Virus record (IMG/VR): IMGVR_UViG_3300021960_000027
Coordinates: 1 to 64,000 of that record
Source of the DNA: a virus
DNA length: 64,000 nucleotides
Reading direction: 5' to 3' (one strand)
Shown: piece after piece, positions 34,910 to 63,560 of the stretch
Numbering within the stretch: position 1 is the first letter of the stretch
Layout of the letters: every line of letters starts with the position of its first letter
Program-made: the position numbers and the translations under genes
Notes under the pieces: generated by a model
What the model was told of the DNA's origin: nothing
Seen by the model: the letters and a program-made list of their open reading frames with translations, nothing else
Database searches by the model: none

Positions 34910-35489
34910 GCGATTTCAAAATTCATCCCAACCACTATCTCCGTCAATGGCAAGTTCAAAAATCGTTTTTGTTTCTTCAGTCGACCGTGGGTCTTATCTG
35001 GAAAAGAAAAATCGGGTTTCAGTTATCGATGTTGCATCTGGAGCAACGTTAATTGTTCCCCTCAGTCGTTCATCAAGGTTTTTCCCACGGGAGGGTGAGG
35101 TTTGGCTAATTGAGCGGTCAGAAGGAGGATGGCGATTTAATTCGATGGTTGGTGATCGAAGAAATCCAGTTGTTTCTAATTGGCTTCAGACTGGAGATTT
35201 TTTAGAAGAGTCAGGATTGTTGACTCATTCAATATTTGCGGGAAACTCTTCGTTTAACCATCCGCAGTCTAAGTCTGGTGGTTACATCGGAGAGATTAGA
35301 ACTATTTCTTACACAGTTTCTTTACCCCCCGATGGGTGGCTTCTGTGTAATGGTGCCACCTACTACAAGTGGTGGTATCCAGTTTTGTATTCGGTTATCA
35401 ACAACTATTACGGGGTTTCAACCGACGCGACATTTAGCGTTCCGTCCTTTGGTAGTTCAACTGTCAAGTACATCATTTGTGCTTATTAA
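34902..35489 (+). CDS. baseplate spike-like protein with tail-collar domain
   Basis: P.EGEVW; IGEI...PPDGWLLCNG..Y..LYSVI...F.VP. Confidence 0.7.
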   Translation: MARRFQNSSQPLSPSMASSKIVFVSSVDRGSYLEKKNRVSVIDVASGATLIVPLSRSSRFFPREGEVWLIERSEGGWRFNSMVGDRRNPVVSNWLQTGDFLEESGLLTHSIFAGNSSFNHPQSKSGGYIGEIRTISYTVSLPPDGWLLCNGATYYKWWYPVLYSVINNYYGVSTDATFSVPSFGSSTVKYIICAY

Positions 35490-43350: not shown

Positions 43351-44886
43351 ATGCCGCTTTACTTTTCTGATCGCGGTTTGTACCCATTTCAGGCCGACCA
43401 CATTGCTGTCGCCATGACACGCCCAAATAACTTGATGGCTTGGGATACAGGATTGGGTAAAACTCACGGGGCAATGGCTACTGCATCTTTTCTTATTGAA
43501 GATGGAGTTATTGACTATTTGCTGATGGTTGTTGAGCGCAACAAAATGAAGGAATGGGCAGAAGACTTTAGGGCATTTACTGATCTTGAAGTTGCTATTT
43601 ACGACGGGACACCTAAGCGAAGACAAAAACTCTTAGTCGAACTCCCTCAGGTTCTCATTGCGACGTATGAAACTGCTCGCCAAGACATGGTCAAGAAAGA
43701 CCCTGCGGATTCTCGCAAACTTTCACCCAACGTGTTGACTGATGCTTACTTAGGTAAGCGAATCATGGTCGCATACGACGAGATGGCAAAGTTGGGCAAC
43801 CGAAAGAGCCTTCTTCATCGGGCGCACTCACTTGCCATTAAGAACTGGAGGGAATCAGGAGAGTGCAGAGTCCTTGGATTGACGGCAACACCAATGGAAA
43901 GAAACCCTGTCAACTACTACAACCTTGGCAGAATCCTAACTCCAGACACGATTGGCACAGTAAGCCAATTCACAAAAGAACACGTTTTGGACTACGACAT
44001 GTTTGGCAACCCTAACAAGTTCTTCAATTTGCCTTCGCTGGCTAAGAAAATGGAGCCGGTCTTGCTTCGTAAAAGAAAGACTGACCCAGATGTCATTGAC
44101 CAGTTCCCCAAAATGGTTGAGCGATTTTCGTACATTGACATGGAGCCAGAGCAAAAGCGTTTTTACGATGAGGTAAAAGATTATTTGATTTATCAGGACG
44201 ACCCATTGCTAGACCAAGTTGGATTTACCGTGCTACGAATGATCGCAGGGCACCCAGCCTCGCTTCTCTCATCGGAAGGCGAACTCGCTAATCAGTTCGT
44301 CCAATCGGTGGGAGTCGAAGCAATCAAAGGAATGGGTTCGGCAAAAATCGATGCGCTAGTCGATCATTTAAATGAGGTTGTTGTTGGTCAGGGAGCGCAG
44401 GTTGTTGTTTTCTCTTACTATGTTTCTATTATCGAACTGATTGCAAAAACTTTGAAAAAAGAAGGAATCTCTTTCTCCGTCAACCACGGGCAGATGTCTT
44501 CAACAGCAAGAGAGCAGTCAAAGAGTGAATTTCGCAGTGGCGCAGTTAATGTGTTTCTTACCAGTAGTGCTGGCGAGCGAGGAATCAATCTTCCAGAGGC
44601 AACGTACGTTGTAAACTTTGATTTGCCGACTAAGCACACTTCTTACCTTCAGCGTCTCAATCGCATCAGTCGAATTGGTAACGTAAAAAGCGACATTGTT
44701 GTCGCCCATTCGTACATTGTTAGAGACAGCATTGAAGAAGGTATTGCCAAATTGTGGCTCGGCAGAAACTATCAAAGTGACATTTTGCTTGATGGCGACC
44801 ACGACGATTTAGAGGATGAATCATTTATCTCATCTTCTGACAGAAGGGCACTGCTTCGCACCGCCGAACTCCAAGGGAAGAAGTGA
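43351..44886 (+). CDS. SNF2-family helicase
   Basis: DTGLGKT, YDEMA, LTATP, GINL, QRLNRISRIG. Confidence 0.9.
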   Translation: MPLYFSDRGLYPFQADHIAVAMTRPNNLMAWDTGLGKTHGAMATASFLIEDGVIDYLLMVVERNKMKEWAEDFRAFTDLEVAIYDGTPKRRQKLLVELPQVLIATYETARQDMVKKDPADSRKLSPNVLTDAYLGKRIMVAYDEMAKLGNRKSLLHRAHSLAIKNWRESGECRVLGLTATPMERNPVNYYNLGRILTPDTIGTVSQFTKEHVLDYDMFGNPNKFFNLPSLAKKMEPVLLRKRKTDPDVIDQFPKMVERFSYIDMEPEQKRFYDEVKDYLIYQDDPLLDQVGFTVLRMIAGHPASLLSSEGELANQFVQSVGVEAIKGMGSAKIDALVDHLNEVVVGQGAQVVVFSYYVSIIELIAKTLKKEGISFSVNHGQMSSTAREQSKSEFRSGAVNVFLTSSAGERGINLPEATYVVNFDLPTKHTSYLQRLNRISRIGNVKSDIVVAHSYIVRDSIEEGIAKLWLGRNYQSDILLDGDHDDLEDESFISSSDRRALLRTAELQGKK

Positions 44887-45212
44887 TGACAACCAACTTA
44901 ATCGAACAAGCAAGTGCTTCTATTAACCAACTGGTAAACAGGCACTCGCTGGGTGACGATATTTATTGGAGTCTTTCCCCAATGCTGGTTCCTACTCCAA
45001 ACGGACCGCAAGCCGTCTACGGGTTGATGATGCACATGCGATCCCCAGTGATTGGCAACACTCTCACAACGTTCTCCATCATTGAAAACCCGCTTGACCT
45101 GTTAAACGATGATGAATTGGAACGACACGTTCAGACCGTTTGTGAAGGACTGAAGGAAAGTCGTTCTGAAATGCTCTCTTCGACCAGCCCATTACAATCG
45201 GAGATGAAATGA
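44883..45212 (+). CDS. hypothetical protein
   Basis: coupled ORF. Confidence 0.6.
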   Translation: MMTTNLIEQASASINQLVNRHSLGDDIYWSLSPMLVPTPNGPQAVYGLMMHMRSPVIGNTLTTFSIIENPLDLLNDDELERHVQTVCEGLKESRSEMLSSTSPLQSEMK

Positions 45213-45571
45213 CACAACGAATCACGACGATGATGGCTGAAATTGTTTGCGAGGTTGCCCAAAGGGGAATCTTAAATAGCGATTCTTTTTCTTACGAAGT
45301 TGGAGTCGGTCCGATGCCAACGTTTGATGAGGAAGAGGGCATGCAGTACGACATGCAGGCGTGGACGATTCTTCGACTTGATGAAGAAGAATCAAATACC
45401 TGCTCAACTATCTGCCTCGCCACTCCACTAGAAATTCTTTCCGAAGAGAACTTTCGGTCTGCCATTGAGAAGGCAGTCGTTGAAATCGAATTCAGTCGAC
45501 TCGCCTCGTCAATTATGGACGAGGAAGAGTTGATGGAGGTTGAGTTAATTATCTACGAAGATGAGGACTGA
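45209..45571 (+). CDS. hypothetical acidic protein
   Basis: ATGA overlap; GGAG RBS. Confidence 0.6.
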   Translation: MTQRITTMMAEIVCEVAQRGILNSDSFSYEVGVGPMPTFDEEEGMQYDMQAWTILRLDEEESNTCSTICLATPLEILSEENFRSAIEKAVVEIEFSRLASSIMDEEELMEVELIIYEDED

Positions 45572-46134
45572 TTGCGAGCCTTCGCCTCGCGAGCCTTAGC
45601 CATCCGCTCAACCAGAATCGCACGCTGTTCTGGAGTAAGTTCACGCTTCTTCCGTGGGGCGGTGAACTTGACCTTGAGTTTCTTGAACTCTGCCTTAAGG
45701 CTGTCGTGGGCTTCTTTGCCCATGAAGTGACGGACAAGATCAAGTTCAACCTGACAAAACCTCCAGTTGTGCTTGTTGTGCAAGCCAGCCAAGTGGTGAG
45801 CAACTTCGTGGATGACGACAAACTCTTGCCTGCCCCAAATTCCTAGCGAGATAGTTTTAACTCCCCACTCGTCGCGTGCCATCCCACCGCTTTTACCCGC
45901 TACAACCCGAATGCTCTTGCCCCACCGGATAATGCCCGAAGAGTCGTACTTCCTCTGGACGTACTTTGATGTCAGGATTTTGTCGACCATCTTCTGGCAC
46001 TCTTCGATGGTCATCGGCTGAATCTCTCGGTTGCCTACTGAACCGTACGCCGTCTTCCGATATACGGACTGCTGAATGCCAGCGTTCCGCTCTGCCTTGT
46101 AAACCTTGCTTCTCTGGCTATCTCGCTGTGACAT
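45553..46134 (-). CDS. HEXXH metallohydrolase (TIGR04338/Rv0185-like)
   Basis: RDSQRSKVYKAE, VVIHEVAHHL...H..RF; GGGAGGG RBS. Confidence 0.8.
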   Translation of the reverse strand: MSQRDSQRSKVYKAERNAGIQQSVYRKTAYGSVGNREIQPMTIEECQKMVDKILTSKYVQRKYDSSGIIRWGKSIRVVAGKSGGMARDEWGVKTISLGIWGRQEFVVIHEVAHHLAGLHNKHNWRFCQVELDLVRHFMGKEAHDSLKAEFKKLKVKFTAPRKKRELTPEQRAILVERMAKAREAKARNQSSSS

Positions 46135-46165
46135 CTTCCCTCCCGATGTGTTGGTTGATACAATG

Positions 46166-46194
46166 ATATTATCACATGGAAAAATCTGAGTCAA
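46166..46194 (-). promoter_or_regulatory. sigma70-like promoter
   Basis: minus strand TTGACT-N17-TAATAT. Confidence 0.7.
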
Positions 46195-46249
46195 ATTGTA
46201 GAATGCCGTTCGCTACCAATGATTGCTGGTACGCTGTGCTAAACAATAC

Positions 46250-46278
46250 TTGCACTGACTGTCAGGGAATGCTAAAGT
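46250..46278 (+). promoter_or_regulatory. sigma70-like promoter (extended -10)
   Basis: TTGCAC-N17-TAAAGT with TGn. Confidence 0.65.
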
Positions 46279-46299
46279 CGTCTCAGGAGGACAACCAAC

Positions 46300-46644
46300 A
46301 TGATGTACGATCCAAAGGCAATGCTCGTTTTGACCAAGCGATTGGTCGGGGAAATGAAGGGCAAGTTTTCTTCAACCCTTGACCCAGACTCAAGGCAGTA
46401 TCTCAAGGAGACGCTGGAGAATCTTTCTTCACTGAGTGGAGATCGTCAGTGCGTAAAGGTCGACCTAGAGTTCGTTACGTTCATCGACCAAGCAATGTGT
46501 CAGTGGATTGAAGAGCAGATCAGCGAGTTGTACGGCAACTACAGCGTGTCTTCAACCAAGATGCTCAACCATTTTCGTCAAGTGAAAAGCGATCTTGACG
46601 AGTCAGTCTTGGACTGGGCACGGACAGCAATTTTTACCGACTGA
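46300..46644 (+). CDS. hypothetical protein
   Basis: AGGAGG RBS. Confidence 0.65.
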   Translation: MMYDPKAMLVLTKRLVGEMKGKFSSTLDPDSRQYLKETLENLSSLSGDRQCVKVDLEFVTFIDQAMCQWIEEQISELYGNYSVSSTKMLNHFRQVKSDLDESVLDWARTAIFTD

Positions 46645-46670
46645 GAATCAACTGGGGGAAAGGAGGAACA

Positions 46671-46889
46671 GTGGCAAAAAACAATCAGCCATCAATCAAA
46701 AAGGACGTACGGAAAGTCATTCGTCGTGCTGAGGAAAGTGGATGGGTTGTTGAGTACACCCGAAATGGTCACATTAAGTGGGTGGCTCCAGACGGAGTTA
46801 CGATATTGATTTGTCCGTCAACCGGCTCTAGTCGGTCATGGAAGAATCATCTTGCTCGCTTGCGTCGACACGGGATCACAGAAAAATAA
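46671..46889 (+). CDS. HicA-like (dsRBD-fold) protein
   Basis: ..GW.V..TRNGHIKW..PDG......STGS..; 72 aa, basic; AGGAGG RBS. Confidence 0.7.
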   Translation: MAKNNQPSIKKDVRKVIRRAEESGWVVEYTRNGHIKWVAPDGVTILICPSTGSSRSWKNHLARLRRHGITEK

Positions 46890-46903
46890 TCTGTGATTTG
46901 TAT

Positions 46904-47320
46904 GGGAAGACATTCCGCGTGGTAATGTCGTCCCGTGGTTCTCAACCTCATTGGTACATCACCTTCACTCCGGTGGTCGGGGTTCGCCCGTTATAGCGAC
47001 GTACGGTCGTGGGAGGTCGTTACACCCCACCGAAAGGCTAGTCGTACCTATCAGCCATAACGAGTCGATCACCAGCGTCGGGTTCCAAGGCGTGCCCGTT
47101 CCCCGACACTGATACGAGAACCATGCTGAGTCGACATATACCGGCAACGGATGTAAAACACGGTCATCATTGACTGTGGGGTAAAGCAGGGAAACCTGTG
47201 TGACACATCTCTGGGCTGACGGGAACCCATGCGGAGTTCAGCCCCAGACCCTCTGAGCGCGAAACCAGCCAGAGAAAGATTTATCTTTCTTTGTCGCGTT
47301 CAGGGGGGTCTGGGCACCCC
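46904..47320 (+). ncRNA. large structured non-coding element (unclassified)
   Basis: about 10 helices including long-range pairings, G-U pairs and GNRA loops (GAAA x2, GCAA). Confidence 0.65.
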
Positions 47321-47344
47321 ATCGGAGTTCAAGGGTAAGAGATA

Positions 47345-47378
47345 CTGTCAATAAGATTCTTTCTACTTCTAAGAGATG
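47345..47378 (+). promoter_or_regulatory. putative late promoter
   Basis: CTGTC-N21-AAGAGATG. Confidence 0.7.
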
Positions 47379-47404
47379 TAAGTATTTAAGTCTTTGGAGT
47401 TCTG

Positions 47405-47782
47405 ATGCCTGTTGTTCGTAATTTGGTTCGTAGTGCGTCTGGTGAAACCTATTATCATGCTTCTTTGTATGAATTCCGTCAGGGTGAGATCGTGAAGCCT
47501 GCGTCTCAGGGGTTGAAGGCGAATTGGAACGAGACGAATCCTGAGTATGCGTATGCGATGAAGTCTCTTGATGATGCGTGGCGGTGGGCTGATAAGGGTC
47601 ATCAGAATCATGTGTATTACGATCATCAGGGCGAGTATTTGGCTTGTATGCATTGGCCGATGGTGTTTGAGGTGGTTGCGGTGAATCCTGCGGATGTTGT
47701 GGATGAGGATATGCCGTGGAGTGGTGTGATGTCGAAGTCTGGGTTTCGGGTAGTTCGCCAGATGCCTGATCCTGATTTGTGA
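47405..47782 (+). CDS. Arr-like (H-Y type) ADP-ribosyltransferase
   Basis: YYHAS...GEIVKP...AYAM..LDDA..WA...VFEV...S..GFRVV; basic N-terminal leader VRSAS. Confidence 0.65.
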   Translation: MPVVRNLVRSASGETYYHASLYEFRQGEIVKPASQGLKANWNETNPEYAYAMKSLDDAWRWADKGHQNHVYYDHQGEYLACMHWPMVFEVVAVNPADVVDEDMPWSGVMSKSGFRVVRQMPDPDL

Positions 47783-47784
47783 TA

Positions 47785-47819
47785 CTGTCTGCGTGGTAGT
47801 TTTAACTGGATAAGAGTTG
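47785..47819 (+). promoter_or_regulatory. putative late promoter
   Basis: CTGTC-N22-AAGAGTTG. Confidence 0.7.
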
Positions 47820-47842
47820 TACCGCACAACCTTGAGGTCTTT

Positions 47843-49252
47843 ATGAAAACATTGTTTGATCTGATTCCTGAACCCAACGAAAGTCGTTCTGCTTCGCTCA
47901 AAACTGCGATTAGCGTTCCAAAAGATTTTCCTGTTCAGCCAGACCCAAACGGTAATGCGACTTGTGGTGTGTGTGGGTTGTCTTGGGATGACGATGTTGT
48001 GACATCGTTTACGCCCGTTCCCGCTGGTCGTTGTCCTTTTGAATATTTCCATGAAGATTGGGACGAAGAGGACGATGAGGACGATGAGTTTTCGTCTTAT
48101 GCTTCGCGCAAGACGGCGGGTGATTATTCTCATTGGAATGAAGAAGCAGATCGAATGCGGTATTTGGATGAGAAGGATTACGAGCCAGACCCGTATGACT
48201 CTTATGAATCTTCTGGCGGTTATGACCATTGGGACGAAGAGGACGAAGATGACATTGAGTCACTGAGTTCTCGCAAAGTTGCTGGCGATGCTCCCGTGTG
48301 TCAAATCTGTAGTGGCACGGGTGCAGGAGTACAATTTTCTATGTTTCCTCAGGTTGAGGGATATTCGTTTGGTGAGATTTGCGTTGATTGTGAAGAGCGG
48401 TTGGCGATTGAGCAGTCGGAACTTTCAGCGGATGACGATCTTTCTTTGATGTACGGTGCGTCACGCAAGACTGCTGGCGCAATGCTTCAGATTGTTTGGG
48501 AAAACGATAAGGGTGACCCAGAAGTCCACAGGGCTGGTTGCGGTAATCTTGCTAAGTACAAGAGGGGCGTTGACAATCCGACGGAGTATGCGTCACTGAA
48601 AGATGTGACGTTTGATATCTATCCTCCCGATGATTTTGGGTATGACGAGGGCGATTGGGAGATTTATGCTCCGAAGGTTCACAGTTGCGTGAAAGGATTG
48701 CCGAAGACTGCCGGTCTGCTTATCTACAAGATTGAGACACCTAAGGGTGTTCTTCCTTACGATTTTGAGACTGAGCAAGATGCCAAAGATTTTGCGATGG
48801 CAAGTTTGTCTTGGACAGGAACGAAGTATCGAATCATCAAGAAGCGCAGGGTCGCCGGTAGTAAAGTTTCTGCTTGGGATGCGCCTTCTGAAAATGACCA
48901 GTATGACGCACCGATGCATTCAAAGATGTATCCAGAGATTGTGATTTATGCTCCGGGCACAATGGCCGCGACAATTATTGTCCCCGATTATTACGCAGAT
49001 AAGTGGATTCCAAAAGAATTGCTTATTTCTCCAAGCGTTACTCGCGTGAAGGCTGGAGCGCATTTTGATGTCTATCCAATCAGTGTTGATGGATACGCTT
49101 TCTCTGAGGGTATGCCAATCGATATCCCTCTAGCGTTCATTCCCGGTTTGGCTGATGAGTGGAGCGGAAGTTCTCAGCAGTGGCATTTGGATGAAATGAA
49201 TCGTCTGTATGGCACTGATTACAAGTTTAAGACTGTTGCGAAGCGGAGGTAA
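47843..49252 (+). CDS. polyprotein with SRKTAG linkers
   Basis: SLKTA, ASRKTAG x2, SSRKVAG, PKTAG and RRVAG separate ~30-90 aa modules. Confidence 0.75.
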   Translation: MKTLFDLIPEPNESRSASLKTAISVPKDFPVQPDPNGNATCGVCGLSWDDDVVTSFTPVPAGRCPFEYFHEDWDEEDDEDDEFSSYASRKTAGDYSHWNEEADRMRYLDEKDYEPDPYDSYESSGGYDHWDEEDEDDIESLSSRKVAGDAPVCQICSGTGAGVQFSMFPQVEGYSFGEICVDCEERLAIEQSELSADDDLSLMYGASRKTAGAMLQIVWENDKGDPEVHRAGCGNLAKYKRGVDNPTEYASLKDVTFDIYPPDDFGYDEGDWEIYAPKVHSCVKGLPKTAGLLIYKIETPKGVLPYDFETEQDAKDFAMASLSWTGTKYRIIKKRRVAGSKVSAWDAPSENDQYDAPMHSKMYPEIVIYAPGTMAATIIVPDYYADKWIPKELLISPSVTRVKAGAHFDVYPISVDGYAFSEGMPIDIPLAFIPGLADEWSGSSQQWHLDEMNRLYGTDYKFKTVAKRR

Positions 49253-49255
49253 GCA

Positions 49256-49546
49256 GTGGCTAACTATGAGGTTTTGAAATCAAAGCATGCTTCGTTGTCT
49301 ACTACTAACGAGGATGTTGTGACGGTGCTTGGTTCGATTCGCACGATTACCGTGCTGAACCACGATGCGTCAAACCTTTTGTATTTCAATGTTGGTGCAG
49401 TTGATCCGGGTGCAGTTACTTCTGCCGCGGACAATTCTTACTGTGTTCCCGTGAGCGGTGAGGTGACTGTTAAGTTGTCTTCACACGGTGCGGTTGTCCG
49501 TCTTATTGGAAGCGGAAACGCTTACTCTGTTCAAGCAATTCAATAA
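49256..49546 (+). CDS. small beta-sandwich structural-like protein
   Basis: 96 aa; ITVLN..., YSVQA. Confidence 0.6.
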   Translation: MANYEVLKSKHASLSTTNEDVVTVLGSIRTITVLNHDASNLLYFNVGAVDPGAVTSAADNSYCVPVSGEVTVKLSSHGAVVRLIGSGNAYSVQAIQ

Positions 49547-49557
49547 AGGAATACCTA

Positions 49558-50142
49558 ATGGCTCTTAAATTAGTTCATGCAGGTCAAAATAATAATTTGA
49601 CCATGACGGTCACTTCACAAGGTTCTTCCTTGGTAGTTGTCAATTTGACTCCCGACTTTGGTCAAATGCTTCCAAGTGGCAGTTCTTTTAGTAACAGTAT
49701 TGCTCTTGATCGGAGCAAGGGTGCCGATTTCAACGTCAAGTATGTTTTGGACATTCTTGAGAAAGAATTGCGAGCAGTTTTTTCTAAAAACGAAGAGGGT
49801 TCAACGACTGCCTCTCGCAAAACTTCAGCACAGGCCGACCAGTTTTATCAAGACCTGTTCGTCACCGCGATGGAGGGTGGAGTTAATTTTTGGGCAGAGG
49901 TACAGGACTACGATCCGAGCAATCTTACTGCCACTCTGATTGACCTCATGGACGGGAAGAAGTACGAGGTAAATCGTTCAACTCTTCTTAAAGGGTACAA
50001 GTTGGCTCAAAATACTCCTTCTCACTGGTGGTCAATCGACAACAAGCCCCCAATGATTCCTAATGAAGAATGGGATTATGACGCTTGGGATGCCAACCTC
50101 GTTGTTCAGTTGGGTCTGTTTGAAGACATGGTGTACGGCTAA
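49558..50142 (+). CDS. two-module protein with ASRKTSA linker
   Basis: second module TAMEGG.N.WA...DA.DA..VVQLGLF...VYG. Confidence 0.7.
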   Translation: MALKLVHAGQNNNLTMTVTSQGSSLVVVNLTPDFGQMLPSGSSFSNSIALDRSKGADFNVKYVLDILEKELRAVFSKNEEGSTTASRKTSAQADQFYQDLFVTAMEGGVNFWAEVQDYDPSNLTATLIDLMDGKKYEVNRSTLLKGYKLAQNTPSHWWSIDNKPPMIPNEEWDYDAWDANLVVQLGLFEDMVYG

Positions 50143-50144
50143 CC

Positions 50145-50387
50145 ATGTTTACTGCTCCCCGTCCATCTTTTTCTGGGGAGACAGCATGGCTAGGTTTAAT
50201 TGCTTACGTCTTTGCGTATGACATCATTGCGCTTAGGTCTGGAAGGTCAACGTTAAGCGCGGCGTTCTACAACGGTGTTCAAAAGAAGCATTCTGCGTTT
50301 CTTTTGATCTTGGCGTGGGGCGCACTCACAGGTCACCTGTTCCATCTCATCCCCAGAAAGTACGATGTGTTCCACATCCTTGATTGA
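50145..50387 (+). CDS. small membrane protein
   Basis: AW...YD...TLS.AF...L..HL...YD; two TM segments. Confidence 0.65.
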   Translation: MFTAPRPSFSGETAWLGLIAYVFAYDIIALRSGRSTLSAAFYNGVQKKHSAFLLILAWGALTGHLFHLIPRKYDVFHILD

Positions 50388-50392
50388 TTGCC

Positions 50393-50527
50393 ATGAAGTC
50401 GTTTATCACATTCAAAGTTGATGCCCCGAAGAAAAAGCGTCCCGGCGTTCACGCCAAACGCGGTCAATCAGCAATGCCTGCATCGAAGAAGTACAAGAAG
50501 AAGTACCGAGGTCAGGGGCGACCGTAG
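50393..50527 (+). CDS. 44-aa highly basic peptide (KKYRGQG type)
   Basis: MKSFITFKVDAPKKKRPGVHAK...KKYRGQGRP*. Confidence 0.6.
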   Translation: MKSFITFKVDAPKKKRPGVHAKRGQSAMPASKKYKKKYRGQGRP

Positions 50528-50528
50528 T

Positions 50529-50774
50529 TCAGCGTAAGTGCCTTTCGATGCATTCACGACAACAGCGGGGATGAAGATCACCTAGCCGAGTTCCCTTTTT
50601 ATGGATAACTGGCGATACTTCTGTGTCAAGCCGGAGGCTCTTGTTGCACCTTGCGTATCGGTCTTTCCCAACCATGTTGACAATGTGATATGTTTCGTCC
50701 CAGTGGGATGCAGATGCCCAACGAGAACGTTCGGCAGGTAGAAGCCGAATCTGTTTGTAAGTTAGGTCGTTCAT
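50529..50774 (-). CDS. hypothetical Zn-binding protein
   Basis: YH...ARC...CCREC; TTGACA upstream at 50807-50812. Confidence 0.55.
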   Translation of the reverse strand: MNDLTYKQIRLLPAERSRWASASHWDETYHIVNMVGKDRYARCNKSLRLDTEVSPVIHKKGTRLGDLHPRCCRECIERHLR

Positions 50775-50842
50775 AATCCAAAAGTTTGATAGAACATTCT
50801 TGATCTTGTCAAGCGCAGTTAGTAGCGACTACCAGCAATGAT

Positions 50843-50871
50843 TTGCACATAGGGTCTAAGGGGGGTAACAT
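50843..50871 (+). promoter_or_regulatory. sigma70-like promoter, leaderless
   Basis: TTGCAC-N17-TAACAT, 7 nt before ATG 50879. Confidence 0.7.
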
Positions 50872-50878
50872 CTTGACC

Positions 50879-52813
50879 ATGACAACCGCCGAACTCGTTT
50901 CATATCTTGATGCAATCGGCATCATCGCCAACGCAATGCCAGTCTACGAAGAGCGACCAGAGCAAAACCAACTTGCTCAATCTATTGAATCTGCGCTGGC
51001 AGACGAAGTTACACTGATCGCCCAAGGCGGGTGCGGGGTCGGCAAATCATTTGCCTCTCTTCTTCCAGCAATCGTGTCTCGCAAAAAGACTGTGTATGCA
51101 ACAGCGACCAAGGCTTTGCAAGATCAAATCGCCAACAAAGACTTGCCGTTCCTCTCCCAGCATTTCGATTTCAACTTTGCAATCGTCAAAGGTAGGTCGA
51201 ACTACGTCTGCATGAACGAAGTTCACAACTTGGACGACGAGTTATTGAAGTCTTCAGTCCTGAATAGCATCGAATCGAACCCAGACATGGAGGGTGTCGA
51301 AGCAGACTTTCCGAACATTGATATGGGTGAATGGAAAGACCTCACCGTTTCTGCCGAAGATTGCCTTGGCTCTGCCTGCCCATTTTTTGAAAATTGTTTT
51401 TCAGAGCGTGCCCGTCAGCGAGCAAAGACTGCCGACATCGTTGTGGTCAATCACTCGGTGCTTGTCTTTGATGCGCTCGTCGCTTCTCTGGGGGTGACCG
51501 CAAGCGGAGAGCGGTTGGGCATGATTGGCGATTACGACCAACTTATTGTTGATGAGGCTCACGAACTTGAGTCATACACAACGAACGCTCTTGGGTCGTC
51601 GCTTTCTGAGGGGACATTCTCTCAACTGTGTTCTTCGTACAACTCTGCGATGCATCGTGTTGATGAAGATGTGTCAAAGAGCGTTGGTCAAATTATGGAC
51701 TTGGTAAAGCGACTGTTTAAGTCTTTGCCAGAGGGACGGGTTACGTCTGAGTTTGCTGAAACCAAGCGCGGTCTTGTTGAGGAACTTTGCGAGTGCCTGA
51801 CTAACTCGGCAGAGAAACTTTCTCAGTCAGTACCTGTCGGTGCGCCGTCAACTGTTTCAAATCGCGTCAAGCAACTTCGGCGCAGGTTTGATTCGGCGGT
51901 GCAAAAGTTGCGTTTCTTTATTGATGGTGACGACGACAAGATTGTTCGCTTTGTAGAGATCGACCGAAACGAAAACGCCCGACTTGAAATTAAGCCCATT
52001 CACGTTGGCGAGTGGCTTAACGATTTTGTGTGGAGCCAATGCACTCCTGTTTTGATGTCTGCGACAATTCTTATCGATGGGTCACCGACATACATCGCTG
52101 ATCGGCTTGGAATCGAATCTGGTCGTGCTGTCGATTCTGGTTCTCCGTTTGATTGGAGCCGTCAAGGAATCTTGTATGTTCCGTCAACTGACGATATCTG
52201 TGAGCCACTTGGTGAGCGAGTTGCCAACTGGCGACAGCAGTCAATCAAGGTGATGGGAGAATTGATTGAAGAATCGGACGGGGGTGCGCTCGTCCTCTTT
52301 ACTTCGTACACAGATATGAAGAATGCGTATGAGGCTCTTGCTGATTCGATTCCTCACCGAGTCTTGATGCAAGGTGATGCTCCTGTCGTTCAACTTGCAG
52401 ACGAATTCCGCAAGGACAGGAACTCTGTTCTGTTCGCTACTCGCTCGTTTTTTACTGGCATGGACATTCAAGGGGATTCTCTCCGTCTTGTCATCATCAG
52501 CAAGATGCCGTTTCCCGTTCCAACTGAGCCGGTGTTTGAGGCTCGCTGTAGCCAGATTGAGCGAAACGGTGGCAACGCTTTCTTTGACATGTCTATCCCA
52601 GAGATGTCTCTTGTTCTTCAGCAGGGGTTTGGTCGGCTGATTCGCTCAAAGAATGATGACGGAGTCGTCGCCATTCTTGATCCTCGCCTGAAAACAAAGC
52701 GGTATGGCTCAACTGTACTGCGCTCCCTTCCCCCAGTTTCTATGACATCAGACCTGAACGTGACCAAGGCATACCTTCGCTCACTGTCGGGAAAAGATAG
52801 TTCTATGATTTGA
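50879..52813 (+). CDS. dinG: DinG/YoaA-family Fe-S helicase
   Basis: GVGKS, KGRSNYVC, C...CP...CF, DEAH, QGFGRLIR. Confidence 0.9.
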   Translation: MTTAELVSYLDAIGIIANAMPVYEERPEQNQLAQSIESALADEVTLIAQGGCGVGKSFASLLPAIVSRKKTVYATATKALQDQIANKDLPFLSQHFDFNFAIVKGRSNYVCMNEVHNLDDELLKSSVLNSIESNPDMEGVEADFPNIDMGEWKDLTVSAEDCLGSACPFFENCFSERARQRAKTADIVVVNHSVLVFDALVASLGVTASGERLGMIGDYDQLIVDEAHELESYTTNALGSSLSEGTFSQLCSSYNSAMHRVDEDVSKSVGQIMDLVKRLFKSLPEGRVTSEFAETKRGLVEELCECLTNSAEKLSQSVPVGAPSTVSNRVKQLRRRFDSAVQKLRFFIDGDDDKIVRFVEIDRNENARLEIKPIHVGEWLNDFVWSQCTPVLMSATILIDGSPTYIADRLGIESGRAVDSGSPFDWSRQGILYVPSTDDICEPLGERVANWRQQSIKVMGELIEESDGGALVLFTSYTDMKNAYEALADSIPHRVLMQGDAPVVQLADEFRKDRNSVLFATRSFFTGMDIQGDSLRLVIISKMPFPVPTEPVFEARCSQIERNGGNAFFDMSIPEMSLVLQQGFGRLIRSKNDDGVVAILDPRLKTKRYGSTVLRSLPPVSMTSDLNVTKAYLRSLSGKDSSMI

Positions 52814-55006: not shown

Positions 55007-55830
55007 AACTCGCCCCAATCCCAAATCATATTTTGCTTCCGTCCGACATGGAGTTGAGACGGATTGCATCCAACCATCGGATTCGCAAACCAGATGACTG
55101 CAACACTTGTGGTGGTCAAAAGACTTTTAGGTTTTGGAACGAGGACAGAACAGAGGTAGTTGACTGGGAGTGCAACTGTGAGGATCAGTATGTTCTCTCG
55201 TTGTATTTTGCAAGCCGTGGAATTTCACGCAGGGACTCCACCATTTCTTGGGCTGACATGACCGCAGTTCCACAGGCAGGCATTGAGTGGCGAAACAATT
55301 ATCTTTCAAATGCAGATGCATTTGTTCGCAATGGGTTTGGTGCCGTTCTTATTGGTGATTCAGGAACTGGTAAGTCTGCATTGGTCAATCTCATGCTTCG
55401 CACACTGATGTTTTTGGGTTACGACGGATATTTCATCCGTTACCCATCTTTGCTTGATTGGGTTCCAAAGACTTGGCAAGACGAAGAGGAAGACCACTTC
55501 TTTAAGAAGAGGGTTGTTAACGCTGGGGTACTGGTCATTGATGACTTGGGTGGCTCAACTTCAGAGATTGAAAAATCTTCCCCAGAGTTTGCGATGAGGG
55601 CAATCGACAACATCCTTCGACATCGACTGAGCGTAGGCGTTCCAACATTTATTACATCTCGCCTATCGGCAGACAAATTGCAGTCAATCTTTGGTCAATC
55701 AATCAGCGACCTCATTCGTGAATCATCCAGCATTCATGTTCTTCGTGGAGAATCTTTCCGTCATACGGGGGAAGACCCGTTTGTTGCTGATATCAAGAAT
55801 GGTATGTCTCGTCCGGTGGTGTTTGGCTGA
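55003..55830 (+). CDS. dnaC: DnaC/IstB-like helicase loader
   Basis: CxxC..CxC, GDSGTGKS, LVIDDLG, PTFITS. Confidence 0.85.
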   Translation: MKLAPIPNHILLPSDMELRRIASNHRIRKPDDCNTCGGQKTFRFWNEDRTEVVDWECNCEDQYVLSLYFASRGISRRDSTISWADMTAVPQAGIEWRNNYLSNADAFVRNGFGAVLIGDSGTGKSALVNLMLRTLMFLGYDGYFIRYPSLLDWVPKTWQDEEEDHFFKKRVVNAGVLVIDDLGGSTSEIEKSSPEFAMRAIDNILRHRLSVGVPTFITSRLSADKLQSIFGQSISDLIRESSSIHVLRGESFRHTGEDPFVADIKNGMSRPVVFG

Positions 55831-57137
55831 TGGCAACACAGTTTGAAAAGGTTTTCATTCAGCACCTCACAATTTCAGAGTCGATGGAAAAGATTGTGGA
55901 GATGGGCGTTTCTCCAGATGTCTTTGTCGATCACGAACTCAAGGCAATCTATTCATTCGCACTCCAGTATTGGCATCAGGATCATTCGGGTGGTATTGCT
56001 CCATCTTCGGATGCGCTTAAGACTCACTTTTCAAACGTGCTGGCAGAACATGAGATTGACGTTGAGTACGAGCCAGAAGATTCTTTGGAATGGTCGGTAG
56101 AGGCTCTTCGTGGTTCCTTTATTGACCGTCAGTGGCAGTCATGGGTGCGTGATTTTGCTACCGACATGTCAGGGGCAGACATTCTTGATAAGCCTGAGGT
56201 TTTGACCGAAGCACTTGACCGTCTTATGGGAATCCAAACTGCAATGTCACGAAAGACAGAGCAGGTTGACATCAGGGACGGCATGTCAGACAGGCTTACC
56301 GAGTATCTTCGTCGTGAGTCCGAGCGGGGCAACAATGTCATTCGTGGCATTCCGTTTGGAATGGAGCAAATCGATTCTCATACAAACGGTATTCTTCCCG
56401 GGGAACTCTGTGTTCTCGCGGCCGGTCCGAAAACGGGTAAATCGTTTATGCTCCTTTATTCAGCACTTCAGTATTGGAAGGCTGGTGGAGTGCCAGTCCT
56501 TTTTACGCTGGAGAACTCTGTTGAGATGACGCAAGACAGACTTGCCTGCATGGAACTCGGTATTGACGCTCGTCGTTGGAATCGGGGAGAGTGCGACGAA
56601 GGTGAACTTCAAAGAATTCGTGAGTGGACAGATGCTCTTCGCAACTCTGAGCGACCATTTTGGATTCTCCAGCCTGAACCCGGAAAGCGGACGGTCGACT
56701 TAATGATTCGTCAAGCGCGAGTTCTTGGCAACGCCGCGTTCATTGACCAGTTAACTTTTGTTGATGTACCAAAAGCAAGCGACCGCTCTCCACGGCACAT
56801 TCAAATCAGAGACATTCTCCATGACTTAAAGTCGATTATTTCTTCCGGCAATCGGATTCCATGTTTGATGGCTCATCAGATTAATCGTGAGGGAGTAAAG
56901 TCAGCAGAGCGAAGTGGGAAGTTGGAGATGTACCACTTGGCAGAATCTGCTGAGGTTGAAAGAACTGCCGACTGGGTTTTTGGACTTTGGCAGGGCGAAG
57001 GTTTGAGGCAGGCTGGTCGTGCGTACATCCAGATGCTCGCGGCTCGTCGTGAAGACCTTGTCGATTGGGAAGCAGTTTGGCGACCTCATATTGGTCAGAT
57101 TGCAGTCCGTGGTCAAGTAGATTTGAGTCAGGTGTGA
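55830..57137 (+). CDS. dnaB: DnaB-like replicative helicase
   Basis: AGPKTGKS, FTLE, FIDQL, HQINR, ERTAD. Confidence 0.9.
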   Translation: MATQFEKVFIQHLTISESMEKIVEMGVSPDVFVDHELKAIYSFALQYWHQDHSGGIAPSSDALKTHFSNVLAEHEIDVEYEPEDSLEWSVEALRGSFIDRQWQSWVRDFATDMSGADILDKPEVLTEALDRLMGIQTAMSRKTEQVDIRDGMSDRLTEYLRRESERGNNVIRGIPFGMEQIDSHTNGILPGELCVLAAGPKTGKSFMLLYSALQYWKAGGVPVLFTLENSVEMTQDRLACMELGIDARRWNRGECDEGELQRIREWTDALRNSERPFWILQPEPGKRTVDLMIRQARVLGNAAFIDQLTFVDVPKASDRSPRHIQIRDILHDLKSIISSGNRIPCLMAHQINREGVKSAERSGKLEMYHLAESAEVERTADWVFGLWQGEGLRQAGRAYIQMLAARREDLVDWEAVWRPHIGQIAVRGQVDLSQV

Positions 57138-58156
57138 CAAAATTTTCTCACCTTCCTGATGGCGAGAAAAAGCGTCTTTGTCTTGACCTGTTGCGTGAAT
57201 TCAACGCAAAGAACATTCGTGAATCGGGGGATGAGTTAATCCATTCCTGCCCTCTTCCATTTGGCATGCACAGAAATGGCGACTCAAATCCTTCAGCATC
57301 TTTGAACTGGCAGAAGTTGGTTTTTAATTGCTTGGGGTGCGGTGGCAAAGGCTCATTGCTTTGGTTCATCTCTGTCATGCGCGGAGAATCCACCGAAGAT
57401 GCAAGGGGATGGCTTTCCGCTCAAACTGGAGTAAACGGTGTTCAGGAAATCGGTGCGTTGATGCAGTTTCTTGATTCATTGAATGAGTCACCAGAGGATA
57501 ACGACCACTCGGTCATGCCACGCTACAACTCTCGTATCTTGGAACCGTGGCTGGTAGATCACCCATACTTTTCTTTTCGTCGCCTGCCAGAACAAAATGT
57601 CAAAGATTCAAAAATTGGATTCGATGGCTCAAGCATTATCATTCCACACTTCTGGAATGAAGAACTTGTCGGCTGGCAAGCAAGACGGTTAGTCAAGGAT
57701 CAGGGACCGAAATACAAATCGACCCCAGAGTTTCCACGGGATAGAACCCTCTACAACTACAATCGCCATTCAGACACAGTGGTGGTAGTTGAGTCTCCAA
57801 TGTCTGTCATCTCTAAGCGTCACCTCTTCCACCTAGAGGCAACATTTGGCGCGGCAGTTACCACTAAACAATGTTCTCTTATTGCAAACCATCGTGGTCG
57901 TATCATTTTGTTTTTTGATAACGATGAGGCTGGGTGGAAGGCAACAACAACGGTTGGTGATTGGCTTTGCCAACGTCAAAGCAACGTGTTCGCCGTTGAC
58001 AATCCGTACGCGGCTGACCCTGCCGACATGAGCGATGAGATGTTCAGCAGACTTGTATCAAATAATGTAGTACCGTATGTTCTTTGGAGCAGACCGTCTA
58101 GTTTAAAGGAAATGGATGATGGGTTTCACCAAGTACAGTCGTGGGAAAGTTCTTAA
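57134..58156 (+). CDS. dnaG: DNA primase (CHC2 Zn finger plus TOPRIM)
   Basis: CP...H..D.NPS...FNCLGCG; KY; VVES; FDNDEAG; DPAD. Confidence 0.9.
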   Translation: MTKFSHLPDGEKKRLCLDLLREFNAKNIRESGDELIHSCPLPFGMHRNGDSNPSASLNWQKLVFNCLGCGGKGSLLWFISVMRGESTEDARGWLSAQTGVNGVQEIGALMQFLDSLNESPEDNDHSVMPRYNSRILEPWLVDHPYFSFRRLPEQNVKDSKIGFDGSSIIIPHFWNEELVGWQARRLVKDQGPKYKSTPEFPRDRTLYNYNRHSDTVVVVESPMSVISKRHLFHLEATFGAAVTTKQCSLIANHRGRIILFFDNDEAGWKATTTVGDWLCQRQSNVFAVDNPYAADPADMSDEMFSRLVSNNVVPYVLWSRPSSLKEMDDGFHQVQSWESS

Positions 58157-58896: not shown

Positions 58897-59820
58897 ATGT
58901 CAGATTTTGACTTCCGCTCAGGTGCGGTAGCCGCGAAAGAATCATCGGAGAAGAAGTCTCCAAGTGGCTCTGCGAAGACCGAGTATTTCAACCTGAAAGA
59001 TGGTGAAAGCACCATCCTTCGTTTCTTGACCGACGTAGATGAAATCATCACTGTCGATCAGCACACTTTTGTGTCAACTCGCCCTGCTCCATCTGGATAC
59101 ACCGGCAAGTTTCCTCAGGCAATGAATGCCATTTGCCGTCGTGACCCTGCATTCGGTGGAACCTACGCAGATTGTTTTATCTGTGACCACCTTGCAATCG
59201 AAGAAAAGAAGTTCGCGGCAAAGCCCCGTGCATGGGCACTCGCGGCAGTTCGTGAACCAGTTTACGAAAACGGAACTCTCGTTGGTTTGCGCGATGCAGT
59301 GCGTCGTGTTCCAGAAGTTATTGATGGTCGTGAAACAGGTCGGGAGATTGAAGAAAAGGCAGTCGTCATTGTGAACATGGCGTTCCATAACTTCTTCTCC
59401 CATGTCTTTGGGCATGCCAACTCCGCGGCAAACGGTGGAACCTTGCTCAATCGTGACTATGAGATTCGTCGCTCAGGTAGCGGACTGCAAACGTCATACA
59501 CCATTACTGGACTTGACAAGATTACGATGGAAGACGGCAAGATTTATGACTTGCGTGATCCCGACATCATGGCTCGCTACCGTCCATATCCTGACTTGAC
59601 TCAGATTCTTGTTGATCGTTCATCTGATGATTACTATGCACGGTTCTTTGATACCCGTGTGCCTCACCCACAGCAGGGTGCTGGCTCTTCATCTTCATCC
59701 CCCAGTGGTGAGCAAGGAATGCGTTTTGCAGTGAGCGCACCAACCAACGACATGCCTACTATGCCGACGAGTGCATCGGCAGAGGACATCATGTCTCGCG
59801 TAACTGCACGCAATGCTTGA
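58897..59820 (+). CDS. single-stranded DNA-binding protein (gp32-like)
   Basis: YF.LKDGE...LRFL, C...C..C, RDY.I.R.G.G..T.Y. Confidence 0.75.
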   Translation: MSDFDFRSGAVAAKESSEKKSPSGSAKTEYFNLKDGESTILRFLTDVDEIITVDQHTFVSTRPAPSGYTGKFPQAMNAICRRDPAFGGTYADCFICDHLAIEEKKFAAKPRAWALAAVREPVYENGTLVGLRDAVRRVPEVIDGRETGREIEEKAVVIVNMAFHNFFSHVFGHANSAANGGTLLNRDYEIRRSGSGLQTSYTITGLDKITMEDGKIYDLRDPDIMARYRPYPDLTQILVDRSSDDYYARFFDTRVPHPQQGAGSSSSSPSGEQGMRFAVSAPTNDMPTMPTSASAEDIMSRVTARNA

Positions 59821-59918
59821 TTGAATGAAGGCGGTCATTTAATCAGGCAAAGAACGGTTTGCCCAGAGACACAAATCCCCCCCATCGTGTCTCTGGGCAG
59901 ACCAACCAAGGGGGCGTT

Positions 59919-62900: not shown

Positions 62901-63560
62901 TTGCTTGCCCAACTGGGTGCGTTTGACAAAATCAGCGGAATGCATCGCGCACAATTAGAGCAGTGGCTTAGTGATATTCGCTCTGGTAAATCGAAGGATT
63001 GTGCGTGGAAAGATGAATCAGTTACTGGTGCGCCAAACGATTTGCCATGTACGTTTGACTGGGCAACTGAGGTTCGTATCGGTAAATCTGGTAAGCCATT
63101 GAAGACAAAGCCAGTGCCAAAGCGGTGCGGTAAAACTTGCCGAAATTACACTGAGCGTTCTGATTCAGAAATGCCAGAAAATGTTCCAGTTCATTCTGAT
63201 GCTTTGATTCGTAATCGTGAGATGGACATGCTTGGCGTGTATTTGTCTAGCACTCCGTTTGATGATGTTGATAATGAAGTTAGATCATCCGTTGTTACAG
63301 CCCACCAGTTGGAGTCTCTTCCAACTGGAACCTACATCACTCTCGGAATTGTTACCGCTGTCCGCAAGAGGAACGATAAGGCAAACCGGCAAATGGCTTT
63401 TGTTGATATTTTGACTGAGCAGGGAACGTTGTCTACTGTCACCTTTTCGGGTGAGTGGGCGAGGTATCATGGGGACATTGTTGTTAGCAAAATGATGCTG
63501 GCAAGAGTTAAGACGAACAAGCGTGGAACACAAATTATTGATGTTGCACCAATCATTTGA
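59919..63560 (+). CDS. dnaE: DNA polymerase III alpha subunit
   Basis: FVHLHAHSEFS.LDG, TDHG, GRGSAAGSL, PDIDSDF, KHAAGVVI, KFDLL, YAFNRSH; OB fold. Confidence 0.95.
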   Translation: MYFVVESFSVDRVTSGLLSGVPVPSVIEDADGGYRWLLVPDGLVITSHWENAYRLGAMGVLSISDGQLFFATTNSVMQSSGGFSFSVPSSELVAVESLPSSSDLALYESRSPIISESGFVHLHAHSEFSPLDGLATVQEMVDEAVRHNQSAIAVTDHGVCAAHPELAKVARRAGIKPVFGIEANFVNHRRVKESVGDYYHLILWAQNERGLRNLWSASSEAYRDGFYGRARMDWDTLSRNNDGVMCSTACLRGPLSDMILDGDEDGVRASLSRLQALFGDRLYVELHTNQLPQQRVVNEALVQLAQEFSLPTIAVADSHYACQSDHKAHKVWIAAQTNKSLQDEGDLFAGDEHYHISSVDEIRQSLSYLPQSVVDESIFQTSVVADLCNAGLESRKSTPVFHRKGEDSGSDKDARVLRQMCLDAWSKVADKPNQEEYVERLEEELDLLVSKKFCGYILLVADYCRWCKENMILMGPGRGSAAGSLVCYLTGITEVDPIDARLLFERFLTPGRTSLPDIDSDFPASKRDVITQYIVDRWGEDRVVRVGTHIRLANRGVMRDLARVLRDSLSIDYRDVDAVSKIIEDAESGTAGLGLSWDELWGQVGDELSPYQLKYPEWFEYADKFVGRLKSYGKHAAGVVIDPERSIIDRLPLRGGESEQPITEFAMEDLEELGYVKFDLLTLRTLDTIQVCLDSIREDEKLSLGSPNIYEWNEEYNDPQVWDMLCEGETLGVFQIETSAGTKLTKRFKPRSIDDLCAILTLVRPGPIRSGLTETYLSRRSGSEPVLSMHPLLDNVLDKTYQTMIYQEDIMAVCRTLGGYTTEEADEVRSILGKKKVDKVESEGRRFISRCVENGVESDIAIRLWDQMQEFARYAFNRSHSWSYALLAYWTAWLKCHYPVHFSAAVLSTVKKERIPQFVEMTRRMGYQVLPPDINESKDGFTISADRMSIRYGLDSVKNVGSSAMQAVLVGQPYESMDDFLERKGRACHMGHVELLAQLGAFDKISGMHRAQLEQWLSDIRSGKSKDCAWKDESVTGAPNDLPCTFDWATEVRIGKSGKPLKTKPVPKRCGKTCRNYTERSDSEMPENVPVHSDALIRNREMDMLGVYLSSTPFDDVDNEVRSSVVTAHQLESLPTGTYITLGIVTAVRKRNDKANRQMAFVDILTEQGTLSTVTFSGEWARYHGDIVVSKMMLARVKTNKRGTQIIDVAPII

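Follow-up and report, generated by a model that had tools for sequence, protein, structure and literature searches.

The DNA analysed here, referred to as the window, is a stretch of 64,000 nt comprising the first 64 kb of the 117,937-bp IMG/VR virus record IMGVR_UViG_3300021960_000027, which represents an uncultured aquatic phage of 118 kb with exact terminal repeats of 127 bp and a GC content of 47.8%. Our subject is a non-coding gap of 515 nt at positions 46890-47404 of the window, between a HicA-like gene and an open reading frame (ORF) of 125 codons, here called ORF125. This gap is a real, conserved, non-coding module lying within the replication region, in an accessory island that is hypervariable. 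Most of it (46904-47320) had been singled out in a preliminary description, made from the letters of the sequence alone, as a highly structured element of about 420 nt, possibly a new large phage RNA or a ribozyme-like RNA. Taken as a whole, that observation was partly confirmed and its interpretation partly supported. The features of the locus are as follows, in window coordinates.

46671-46889, + strand: HicA-like gene, 72 aa, with Pfam and PHROG matches and a positive coding score in frame
46901-46937, + strand: hairpin 12 nt past the HicA-like stop codon, no U-tract after it, -18.4 kcal/mol
46938-47127, strand undecided: GC-rich "core" with ambiguous long-range pairings
47141-47200, + strand: three small hairpins, CCG-GCAA-CGG, CACGGTCA-TCAT-TGACTGTG and GCAGG-GAAA-CCTGT, pair probabilities 0.95-0.99
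47221-47240, + strand: copy 1 of a 20-nt direct repeat, GGGAACCCATGCGGAGTTCA, just 5' of the long hairpin
47243-47314, + strand: long two-tiered hairpin of 31 bp, containing an internal loop of 7 nt and one bulge
47312-47331, + strand: copy 2 of the direct repeat, GGGCACCCCATCGGAGTTCA, on the 3' side of the long hairpin
47344-47378, + strand: bipartite promoter-like motif ACTGTC-N21-TAAGAGAT, in the AT-rich tail, 61 nt 5' of the ORF125 start
47405-47782, + strand: ORF125, 125 aa, the first gene 3' of the element, coding score positive

Coding potential was scored using a 3-periodic Markov model trained on 53 long ORFs. The score was below zero in all six frames over approximately 46780-47380, except for a single value of +1.3 at 46900, and above zero in the correct frame of both genes flanking the gap. 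No Pfam or PHROG family matched the eight stop-to-stop frames of the gap at better than E 0.1, tblastn of 13 gap frames against the loci of relatives gave no match, and a 90-aa frame on the - strand had none among 5.8 billion proteins. A phmmer search with a 71-aa + strand frame returned three matches, all of them tandem-repeat proteins in which 7-18 weak stretches were summed (about 24 bits each in P0122, the one match aligned pairwise), and these were discarded as an artefact. The earlier statement that no credible ORF is present in an otherwise gene-dense genome was thus borne out, with gaps of at least 40 nt adding up to 5,985 of 117,937 nt. The genome seems to have no non-coding stretch longer than the gap at 46890-47404, as other ORF-free gaps of greater or similar length (57394-57845 and 34910-35235) turned out to be covered by long ORFs. 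The block at 46904-47320 has a GC content of 56.4% against a genome mean of 47.8% (standard deviation 2.8%), which is three standard deviations above the mean and within the top 0.34% of 2,351 windows of the genome, the opposite of what is usual for a neutral spacer. The adjoining AT-rich tail (47321-47404) has 34.5% GC, a value within the bottom 0.6% for 84-nt windows. Only one copy of the element is present in the genome.

The 12 pairs of complementary segments named in the preliminary description were all found in place, and are numbered here from 5' to 3'.

Helix 1: GGGAAGACATT at 46904-46914 with AATGTCGTCCC at 46924-46934
Helix 2: GTGGTTCTC at 46935-46943 with GAGAACCAT at 47116-47124
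Helix 3: GGTGGTCGG at 46972-46980 with TCGATCACC at 47065-47073
Helix 4: CGTTAT at 46989-46994 with ATAACG at 47057-47062
Helix 5: GTACGG at 47001-47006 with TCGTAC at 47042-47047
Helix 6: GTGGG at 47009-47013 with CCCAC at 47026-47030
Helix 7: CAGCGTCGGG at 47073-47082 with CCCGACACTG at 47102-47111
Helix 8: CCG-GCAA-CGG at 47141-47150
Helix 9: CACGGTCA with TGACTGTG, 47159-47178
Helix 10: GCAGG-GAAA-CCTGT at 47187-47200
Helix 11: GGGCTGA at 47214-47220 with TCAGCCC at 47238-47244
Helix 12: long stem at 47243-47314

When the gap was folded whole and compared with shuffled sequences, z-scores of -4.19 on the + strand and -3.82 on the - strand were obtained, mostly due to one hairpin; with this last hairpin removed (46900-47240) they were -1.23 on the + strand (12 of 100 shuffles as good) and -1.87 on the - strand (3 of 100). 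Folding better than that of shuffled sequence is limited to three local parts, which are the hairpin at 46900-46938, the segment 47128-47245, and the hairpin at 47240-47318. The first of these has z-scores of -3.9 on the + strand and -5.0 on the - strand, with a pair probability of about 0.9. The segment 47128-47245, in which GNRA loops cap two of the three small hairpins, reaches z -2.44 and -41.5 kcal/mol on the + strand versus z +0.26 and -30.5 kcal/mol on the - strand. The 31-bp hairpin, folded as 47240-47318, reaches z -8.3 and -47.4 kcal/mol on the + strand versus z -4.9 and -37.9 kcal/mol on the - strand, and its non-Watson-Crick oppositions on the + strand are three G.U and no A.C. A genome-wide scan of 1178 segments of 200 nt placed the one at 47201 second on the + strand, while those at 46901, 47001 and 47101 ranked 565, 730 and 337. 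The stretch from 47318 to 47404 is unstructured (z -0.37 on the + strand, +1.54 on the - strand).

The 5' half behaved differently on the two strands. The core (46932-47127) folds on the + strand with z -1.46 and -67.6 kcal/mol, 15 of 200 shuffles being as good, versus z -2.51 and -79.4 kcal/mol on the - strand, where 2 of 200 were as good. It holds small local hairpins at 46945-46955 (ACC/GGT), 46978-46990 (CGGG/CCCG) and 47009-47030 (GTGGG/CCCAC). In a partition-function fold of 46895-47335, helices 1, 6, 8, 9, 10 and 12 have pair probabilities of at least 0.5, and the remaining six, which are long-range or junction helices, give way to other pairings, so that a multi-way-junction architecture is not fixed by the sequence alone. 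The proposal of a single 420-nt multiway-junction RNA was therefore not supported, since the 5' 200 nt are comparable to shuffles on the + strand and the junction helices depend on the segment folded. The + strand preference claimed with it held for the 3' half (47128-47245 and the big hairpin) and failed for the core, where folding on the + strand is as expected by chance and the - strand is the more stable of the two. Nothing points to a ribozyme-like nature.

Two further sets of complementary sequences were noted. The 20-nt direct repeats (family D2) are 80% identical, are spaced 91 nt apart, and flank the 31-bp hairpin. Both copies are complementary to 46967-46976, and within copy 2 it is CCATCGGAGT that matches ACTCCGGTGG at those positions; this shared complementarity may reflect alternative pairings or an old duplication. 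The resulting 10-bp helix (46967-46976 with 47319-47328) is predicted at a probability of 0.93 in the fold of 46895-47335, and by our own estimate approximately 0.5 such matches would be expected by chance in 440 nt. In addition, GGGTTCC at 47080-47086 is complementary over 7 nt to GGAACCC at 47222-47228, and each lies in a hairpin loop in one fold (the core centroid and the fold of 47128-47245, respectively). Noticed post hoc, this match makes a loop-loop contact between the two sites possible in the predicted structures.

The sequence downstream of the long hairpin was examined for signals of transcription termination and initiation. The hairpin is stable and G+C-rich, as in Rho-independent terminators, and no U-tract lies 3' of the stem, where GCACCCCATCGG follows; a terminator scan found no terminator-like site within 46890-47404. 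The stem also has the shape of an RNase III site, which is imperfect double-stranded RNA of at least about 20 bp with an internal loop. Because of the missing U-tract, the hairpin at 47243-47314 is interpreted here as a putative 3'-end, processing or insulating signal of the upstream unit rather than as a canonical terminator. Clear terminators, with G-rich perfect stems and U-tracts, are located at approximately 448-500 and 10515-10555 of the window and 69857-69900 of the genome, which shows that ordinary terminators are used elsewhere by the phage or host polymerase.

Only 30 nt separate the end of the big hairpin from the ACTGTC at 47344. On the + strand, 9 of 37 copies of ACTGTC are found in the 5,985 nt of intergenic sequence, where 1.88 would be expected (Poisson P 1.5e-4; approximately 5-fold enrichment), and its reverse complement is not enriched (2 intergenic copies versus 1.22 expected). 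Eight of the sites lie 42-69 nt 5' of start codons and are followed about 21 nt on (N20-25) by a box resembling TAAGAGAT; these are at 1642, 7781, 20555, 46258, 47344 and 47784 of the window and 74796 and 97276 of the genome. The motif at 46258 precedes a 114-aa gene and the HicA-like gene, that at 47344 precedes ORF125, and that at 47784 precedes a 469-aa ORF. From its distribution in the sequence, ACTGTC...TAAGAGAT is a candidate for a phage-specific promoter, and the three sites at 46258, 47344 and 47784 would place the element between the final gene of one unit and the promoter of the next. At 20555, a U-tailed terminator hairpin is found approximately 25 nt before the same motif. Hairpins lacking U-tracts were also seen at about 59815-59848 and 59857-59903, followed by ACTGTC at 59969. 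Both hairpins fall within the 5' portion of the longest dnaE frame, so dnaE may in fact begin close to 60005.

In order to compare the locus with close relatives, 11 sequencing runs from 9 studies that carry part of the stretch were considered. Four possible source runs were set aside, and the runs X5, X8, X9 and X10 were compared as listed below. Stretches without coverage count neither way, among them most of the HicA-like gene in X5 and, in X10, 46891-46942 and everything from 47145 onward. The summary totals of differences exceed those itemised, and a worst case was tested as well.

X10 (RNA library), 46943-47144, a 202-nt contig: 6 differences
X10 (RNA library), 46770-46890, HicA-like gene: 18 differences in 121 nt
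X5 (mangrove DNA), 46916-47157: 8 differences in 242 nt
X5 (mangrove DNA), 47156-47590: 26 differences in 435 nt
X5 (mangrove DNA), 47563-47796: 6 differences in 234 nt
X5 (mangrove DNA), 46606-46653: 4 differences in 48 nt
X8, 46988-47240: 0 differences in 253 nt
X9, 47226-47450: 3 differences in 225 nt

The block is kept at 97-100% identity in the four runs, whereas the adjoining coding stretches fall to 85-90%, the HicA-like gene and the opening 45 codons of ORF125 being far more diverged; it is kept at least as well as the best-preserved coding DNA nearby. In X10 the element contig has significantly fewer differences than the HicA-like contig (Fisher P 1.3e-4). In X5 the itemised differences number 2 in 47156-47397 versus 19 in 47398-47540, and in the worst case the element has 15 in 482 nt versus 19 in 193 nt (P 7e-4). 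Of the itemised substitutions, two fall in stems of the preliminary description, 47070 C>T and 47242 C>T, and both change a G-C pair to G.U on the + strand; the others are in loops. The 202-nt contig of the metatranscriptomic run X10 lies wholly inside the element, which is a weak hint of transcription since carry-over of DNA is possible. As for ORF125 itself, 47398-47540, which covers its ribosome-binding region and first 45 codons, carries 19 itemised differences in 143 nt in the X5 mangrove relative, compared with 6 in 234 nt for the rest of the gene, so that a hypervariable N-terminus stands next to a conserved upstream region.

The covariance-model search proposed in the preliminary description was carried out against Rfam 15, including GOLLD, ROOL, HEARO, RNase P, group I/II introns, tmRNA, 6S, riboswitches and self-cleaving ribozymes. 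No match was obtained in the 64-kb window at the gathering threshold, and at E values up to 10 the region 46700-47500 gave only three spurious eukaryotic matches far under threshold (mir-4782, at 23 of 100 bits, snoZ199 and DLEU1_2), so its assignment to no known class stands. ARAGORN found no tRNA or tmRNA in the window, in the whole genome, or in 46700-47500 at the relaxed setting -ps80. Partner proteins were sought as well: the genome gave no match to reverse transcriptase PF00078, to PF07282 (the one domain family searched for TnpB/IscB), or to Ro60/TROVE PF05731, and a six-frame search that ignored stop codons gave none to the HicB families PF15919 and PF05534 at E values up to 1. The Pfam search of the gap frames likewise revealed no HicB adjoining the HicA-like gene. 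With no reverse transcriptase, TnpB, Ro60 or HicB frame, a retron msr-msd RNA, an omega RNA (HEARO), a Y RNA and a hicAB module with a decayed hicB were removed as readings. The tandem repeats of a type III RNA antitoxin (ToxI-like) were also absent, the gap at 46890-47404 having two-copy short repeats only.

Homologues of the element were sought in several collections. A distant-mode blastn search of 50,697 GenBank phage records gave no match. Searches for related loci with three single window proteins found none, and an alignment of 30 SNF2 sequences (29 hand-picked from 120 listed of 576 matches, plus P0002 of the window) led to 30 IMG/VR loci. Against these, blastn and nhmmer with the element gave nothing below E 0.06, and a DNA search of the whole records for 5 of the 30 returned chance matches of 19-26 nt only. 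Scans with exact k-mers, which are blind to anything under about 90% identity, gave no match in IMG/VR to one 22-mer and one 20-mer. In the JGI metagenomes one 20-mer had no match and another had three, with no likeness beyond 21 nt. In GTDB genomes one 20-mer had no match and another had a single one, in which the hairpin at 47155-47178 is identical over 24 nt to a U-tailed terminator hairpin in an Izemoplasmatales metagenome-assembled genome (L035:3540-3563); the remaining sequence is unlike, and this identity was put down to chance. Relatives of the SNF2 helicase at 55-66% identity were found only in Logan/ENA assemblies.

Nearly all genes of the phage are on the + strand. Baseplate and other structural genes occupy the region up to about 43 kb and are followed by the replication module, whose principal genes in the window are:

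43351-44886: SNF2-type helicase
50843-52813: DinG-type helicase
55830-57137: DnaB-like protein
59859-63560: DnaE

For the DinG helicase and DnaE, the nearest cultured phages show only approximately 30-33% protein identity, and the phage belongs to a lineage without a cultured relative. The order of a gene for a 1623-aa protein, SNF2, a variable stretch, and DinG is kept in the 30 related IMG/VR loci, which are mostly 55-71% GC. In these loci the variable stretch measures 2.5-6 kb and has almost no genes in common with the corresponding island of the window, within which the non-coding element sits. By this comparison the whole of 44887-50842, between the two helicase genes, is a hypervariable island, and only two of its genes recur, g44883 in L002 and a - strand gene in L005. 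The latter is the 213-aa gene at 45553-46194, on the - strand of an almost wholly + strand genome; it had no Pfam or PHROG family, and it is judged real from its 40% identity over 172 aa to the - strand frame of L005 (E 2e-36). The HicA-like gene matches phrog_2089 (E 2.6e-13) and Pfam HicA_toxin (E 6.5e-4, 20.2 bits, under the 27-bit cut-off); its homologue in L008 is located about 3.4 kb upstream of the SNF2 gene and not inside the island. ORF125 has no relative besides itself among the 5.8 billion proteins.

The non-coding status of the gap, its unusual composition, its local + strand-specific hairpins, its conservation in relatives and the layout of motifs around it were observed directly. 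The reading that we favour, with a probability of roughly 0.45, is that the HicA-like unit ends, on the + strand, in a structured 3' tail formed by the element, from which a stable RNA may be processed and which the 31-bp hairpin terminates; that the HicA-like gene is the final gene of the unit whose tail the element forms carries the same slightly less than even chance. The unit would run from the promoter-like site at 46258 through the 114-aa gene and the HicA-like gene into a tail of about 430 nt, of which 46900-47320 would be read as + strand RNA, with a stable RNA perhaps being processed out of it. The tail would consist, in order, of the post-stop hairpin, the GC-rich body, the three small hairpins (two with GNRA loops) and the 31-bp hairpin. 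This last hairpin may make or protect the 3' end of the RNA, or may be an RNase III-type processing site, and it would shield the unit from the promoter-like motif that begins 30 nt further on (47344) and is predicted to drive ORF125. Transcription of the tail, the direction of its 5' half, the formation or processing of a 3' end at the hairpin, and any trans-acting role are what we infer; a global multi-junction fold is excluded from this explanation.

Several results weigh against a + strand RNA tail. The 5' 200 nt have no + strand fold support (z -1.46), the - strand folding better by 12 kcal/mol, and the long-range helices vary with the segment folded. The conservation has no edge over the best-kept coding flank (8 differences in 242 nt for the element versus 6 in 234 nt for the rest of ORF125, P 0.79) and could therefore be due to mosaic recombination among near-identical phages rather than constraint; the overall pattern fits purifying selection, and also a mosaic of near-identical phages with two hypervariable genes. 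As the conserved block includes the AT-rich promoter region, part of any constraint may be on the DNA. The k-mer depth in X10 was 2.8 for the element contig, not above the 3.6 of the HicA-like contig, and does not suggest an abundant stable RNA. The U-tract seen in the clear terminators of the genome (at about 448, 10515 and 69857) is missing from the big hairpin, transcription could end already at the post-stop-codon hairpin, and no promoter for an independent RNA gene was found. Lastly, no homologue of the element beyond about 97% identity was reached in any collection searched.

A serious contender, which we nevertheless hold to be somewhat doubtful, is a composite regulatory spacer in which only the end hairpins and the ORF125 promoter are functional, the GC-rich body being a functionless relic such as a foreign scrap of higher GC, the big hairpin an atypical terminator, and the conservation a product of near-identical mosaics alone. 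Such a spacer agrees with fold support that is confined to local hairpins while the body folds at chance level, with conservation no better than that of the best coding flank, and with the turnover of genes between the two helicases in the 30 relatives, whose mostly 55-71% GC shows that GC-rich donor DNA is present in the wider lineage. It sits poorly with the strand specificity of the three body hairpins, two of them with GNRA loops; a neutral spacer of 417 nt would also clash with the tight packing of a genome in which this is the longest non-coding gap, and no peptide or nucleotide likeness to relatives or to protein families marks the body as a relic. At the other extreme, 46962-47334 might be a discrete, undescribed phage RNA of about 370 nt with paired ends and an internal loop-loop contact, carried as conserved island cargo and acting in trans, which seems unlikely. 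The end pairing that it would require (ACUCCGGUGG at 46967-46976 with CCAUCGGAGU at 47319-47328) was noticed post hoc and is improbable to the same degree, as is the contact of GGAACCC at 47222-47228 with GGGUUCC at 47080-47086, also noticed post hoc; that its targets would lie in the host, or among the phage's own takeover genes, is similarly a long shot.

Selection might also act on the DNA rather than on an RNA, the element being a replication origin, a protein-binding site or a recombination site made of GC palindromes beside an AT-rich unwinding region and a promoter. The origins of T4 and T7 are of this promoter-plus-unwinding-element type, and the locus resembles them in that a block of exceptionally high GC (top 0.34%) borders one that is exceptionally AT-rich (lowest 0.6% in GC). 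The SNF2-type and DinG-type helicase genes lie on either side of it, with the DnaB and DnaE genes farther downstream; the AT-rich part is conserved too, and the core folds as well or better on the - strand, as expected of DNA palindromes. No iterons or tandem repeats occur in 46890-47404, however, and no DnaA-box-like site lies within 25 kb. The cumulative GC skew rises nearly monotonically with no extremum at 47 kb (a shallow dip at 37-45 kb follows two large structural genes), and the restriction of the imperfections in the 3' hairpins to G.U speaks for selection at the RNA level, so that we regard a DNA element as quite improbable. Much less credible still is a MITE-like or palindromic insertion spanning 46962-47334, with the 72-nt hairpin and one 20-nt repeat added by a later insertion or duplication. 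Its imperfect 16-nt inverted ends (CCTTCACTCCGGTGG at 46962-46976 and CCATCGGAGTTCAAGG at 47319-47334), the direct repeats flanking the hairpin and a GC content foreign to the genome are set against a single copy in the genome, the lack of a target-site duplication outside the inverted ends, the failure of exact 20-22-mer scans of IMG/VR, the JGI metagenomes and GTDB to give another copy, and the fact that chance alone would be expected to yield an inverted repeat this good. The least probable of all is an RNA antitoxin or partner standing in for HicB beside an orphan HicA-like protein. HicA proteins have a fold that binds double-stranded RNA, the element starts 12-15 nt past the HicA-like stop codon, and no HicB-family frame exists anywhere in the genome even with stops read through. 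Nevertheless, the element lacks the tandem repeats of known RNA antitoxins, the HicA-like gene of X10 differs by 15% and the element by 3% with no co-variation between them, the HicA-like homologue in L008 is followed directly by a coding gene, and members of phrog_2089 are, we presume, common as orphan phage genes.

Compared with known systems, the tail that we favour would by analogy be closest in action to the intergenic, hairpin-rich RNA loci found in lytic phages and to RNase III or retroregulatory hairpins. GOLLD and ROOL are large structured phage-associated RNAs of unknown function that are represented in Rfam. Like these, the element is phage-borne, non-coding, several hundred nt long, GC-enriched relative to its genome and rich in hairpins, including GNRA hairpins; unlike them, it has no covariance-model match at E up to 10, measures only about 420 nt, has no family of homologues, and has fold support for local hairpins only. 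Hairpins of the T7 R1.1 type and lambda sib serve in RNase III processing and retroregulation of polycistronic phage RNAs. The likeness here is an intergenic, imperfect stem that exceeds 20 bp, is interrupted by an internal loop and has no U-tract, downstream of a gene whose dose may need control, whereas at our locus approximately 340 nt of additional non-coding sequence precedes the hairpin and any cleavage is putative. Hairpin-rich intergenic small-RNA loci are reported to lie between transcription units of lytic phages such as LUZ7-type Pseudomonas phages (Putzeys et al. 2022, PMC9163698). They share with the element a gap in a packed genome, a promoter preceded by a terminator-like hairpin, and non-coding sequence that is structured; the element differs from them in being unrelated in sequence, in lacking a U-tract, and in being known from sequence alone. 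In hicAB operons, an internal G/C-rich hairpin terminator with a UUU tract is reported to follow hicA and precede hicB (Lin et al. 2025, PMC11878559). A G/C-rich hairpin directly 3' of a hicA-type gene is likewise found here, but with no U-tract and no HicB in the genome, which sets it apart from that arrangement.

The element is an orphan among phage non-coding RNAs and structured untranslated regions of unknown function, and is not demonstrably a new class; it is called undescribed because it is absent from Rfam and the sequence collections, no literature search having been aimed at this. As a mere spacer carrying a terminator and a promoter, it would be unremarkable. The boundaries of transcription units in this lineage would also be marked by a hairpin followed by the ACTGTC...TAAGAGAT motif. 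Should it prove to be a functional RNA, it would be an orphan addition to the small set of large structured RNAs in lytic phages, none of which, to our knowledge, has a known function, and its place within an accessory island, next to a homologue of the HicA RNase and to putative host-takeover genes, would make it a candidate regulator or decoy in the conflict between phage and host.

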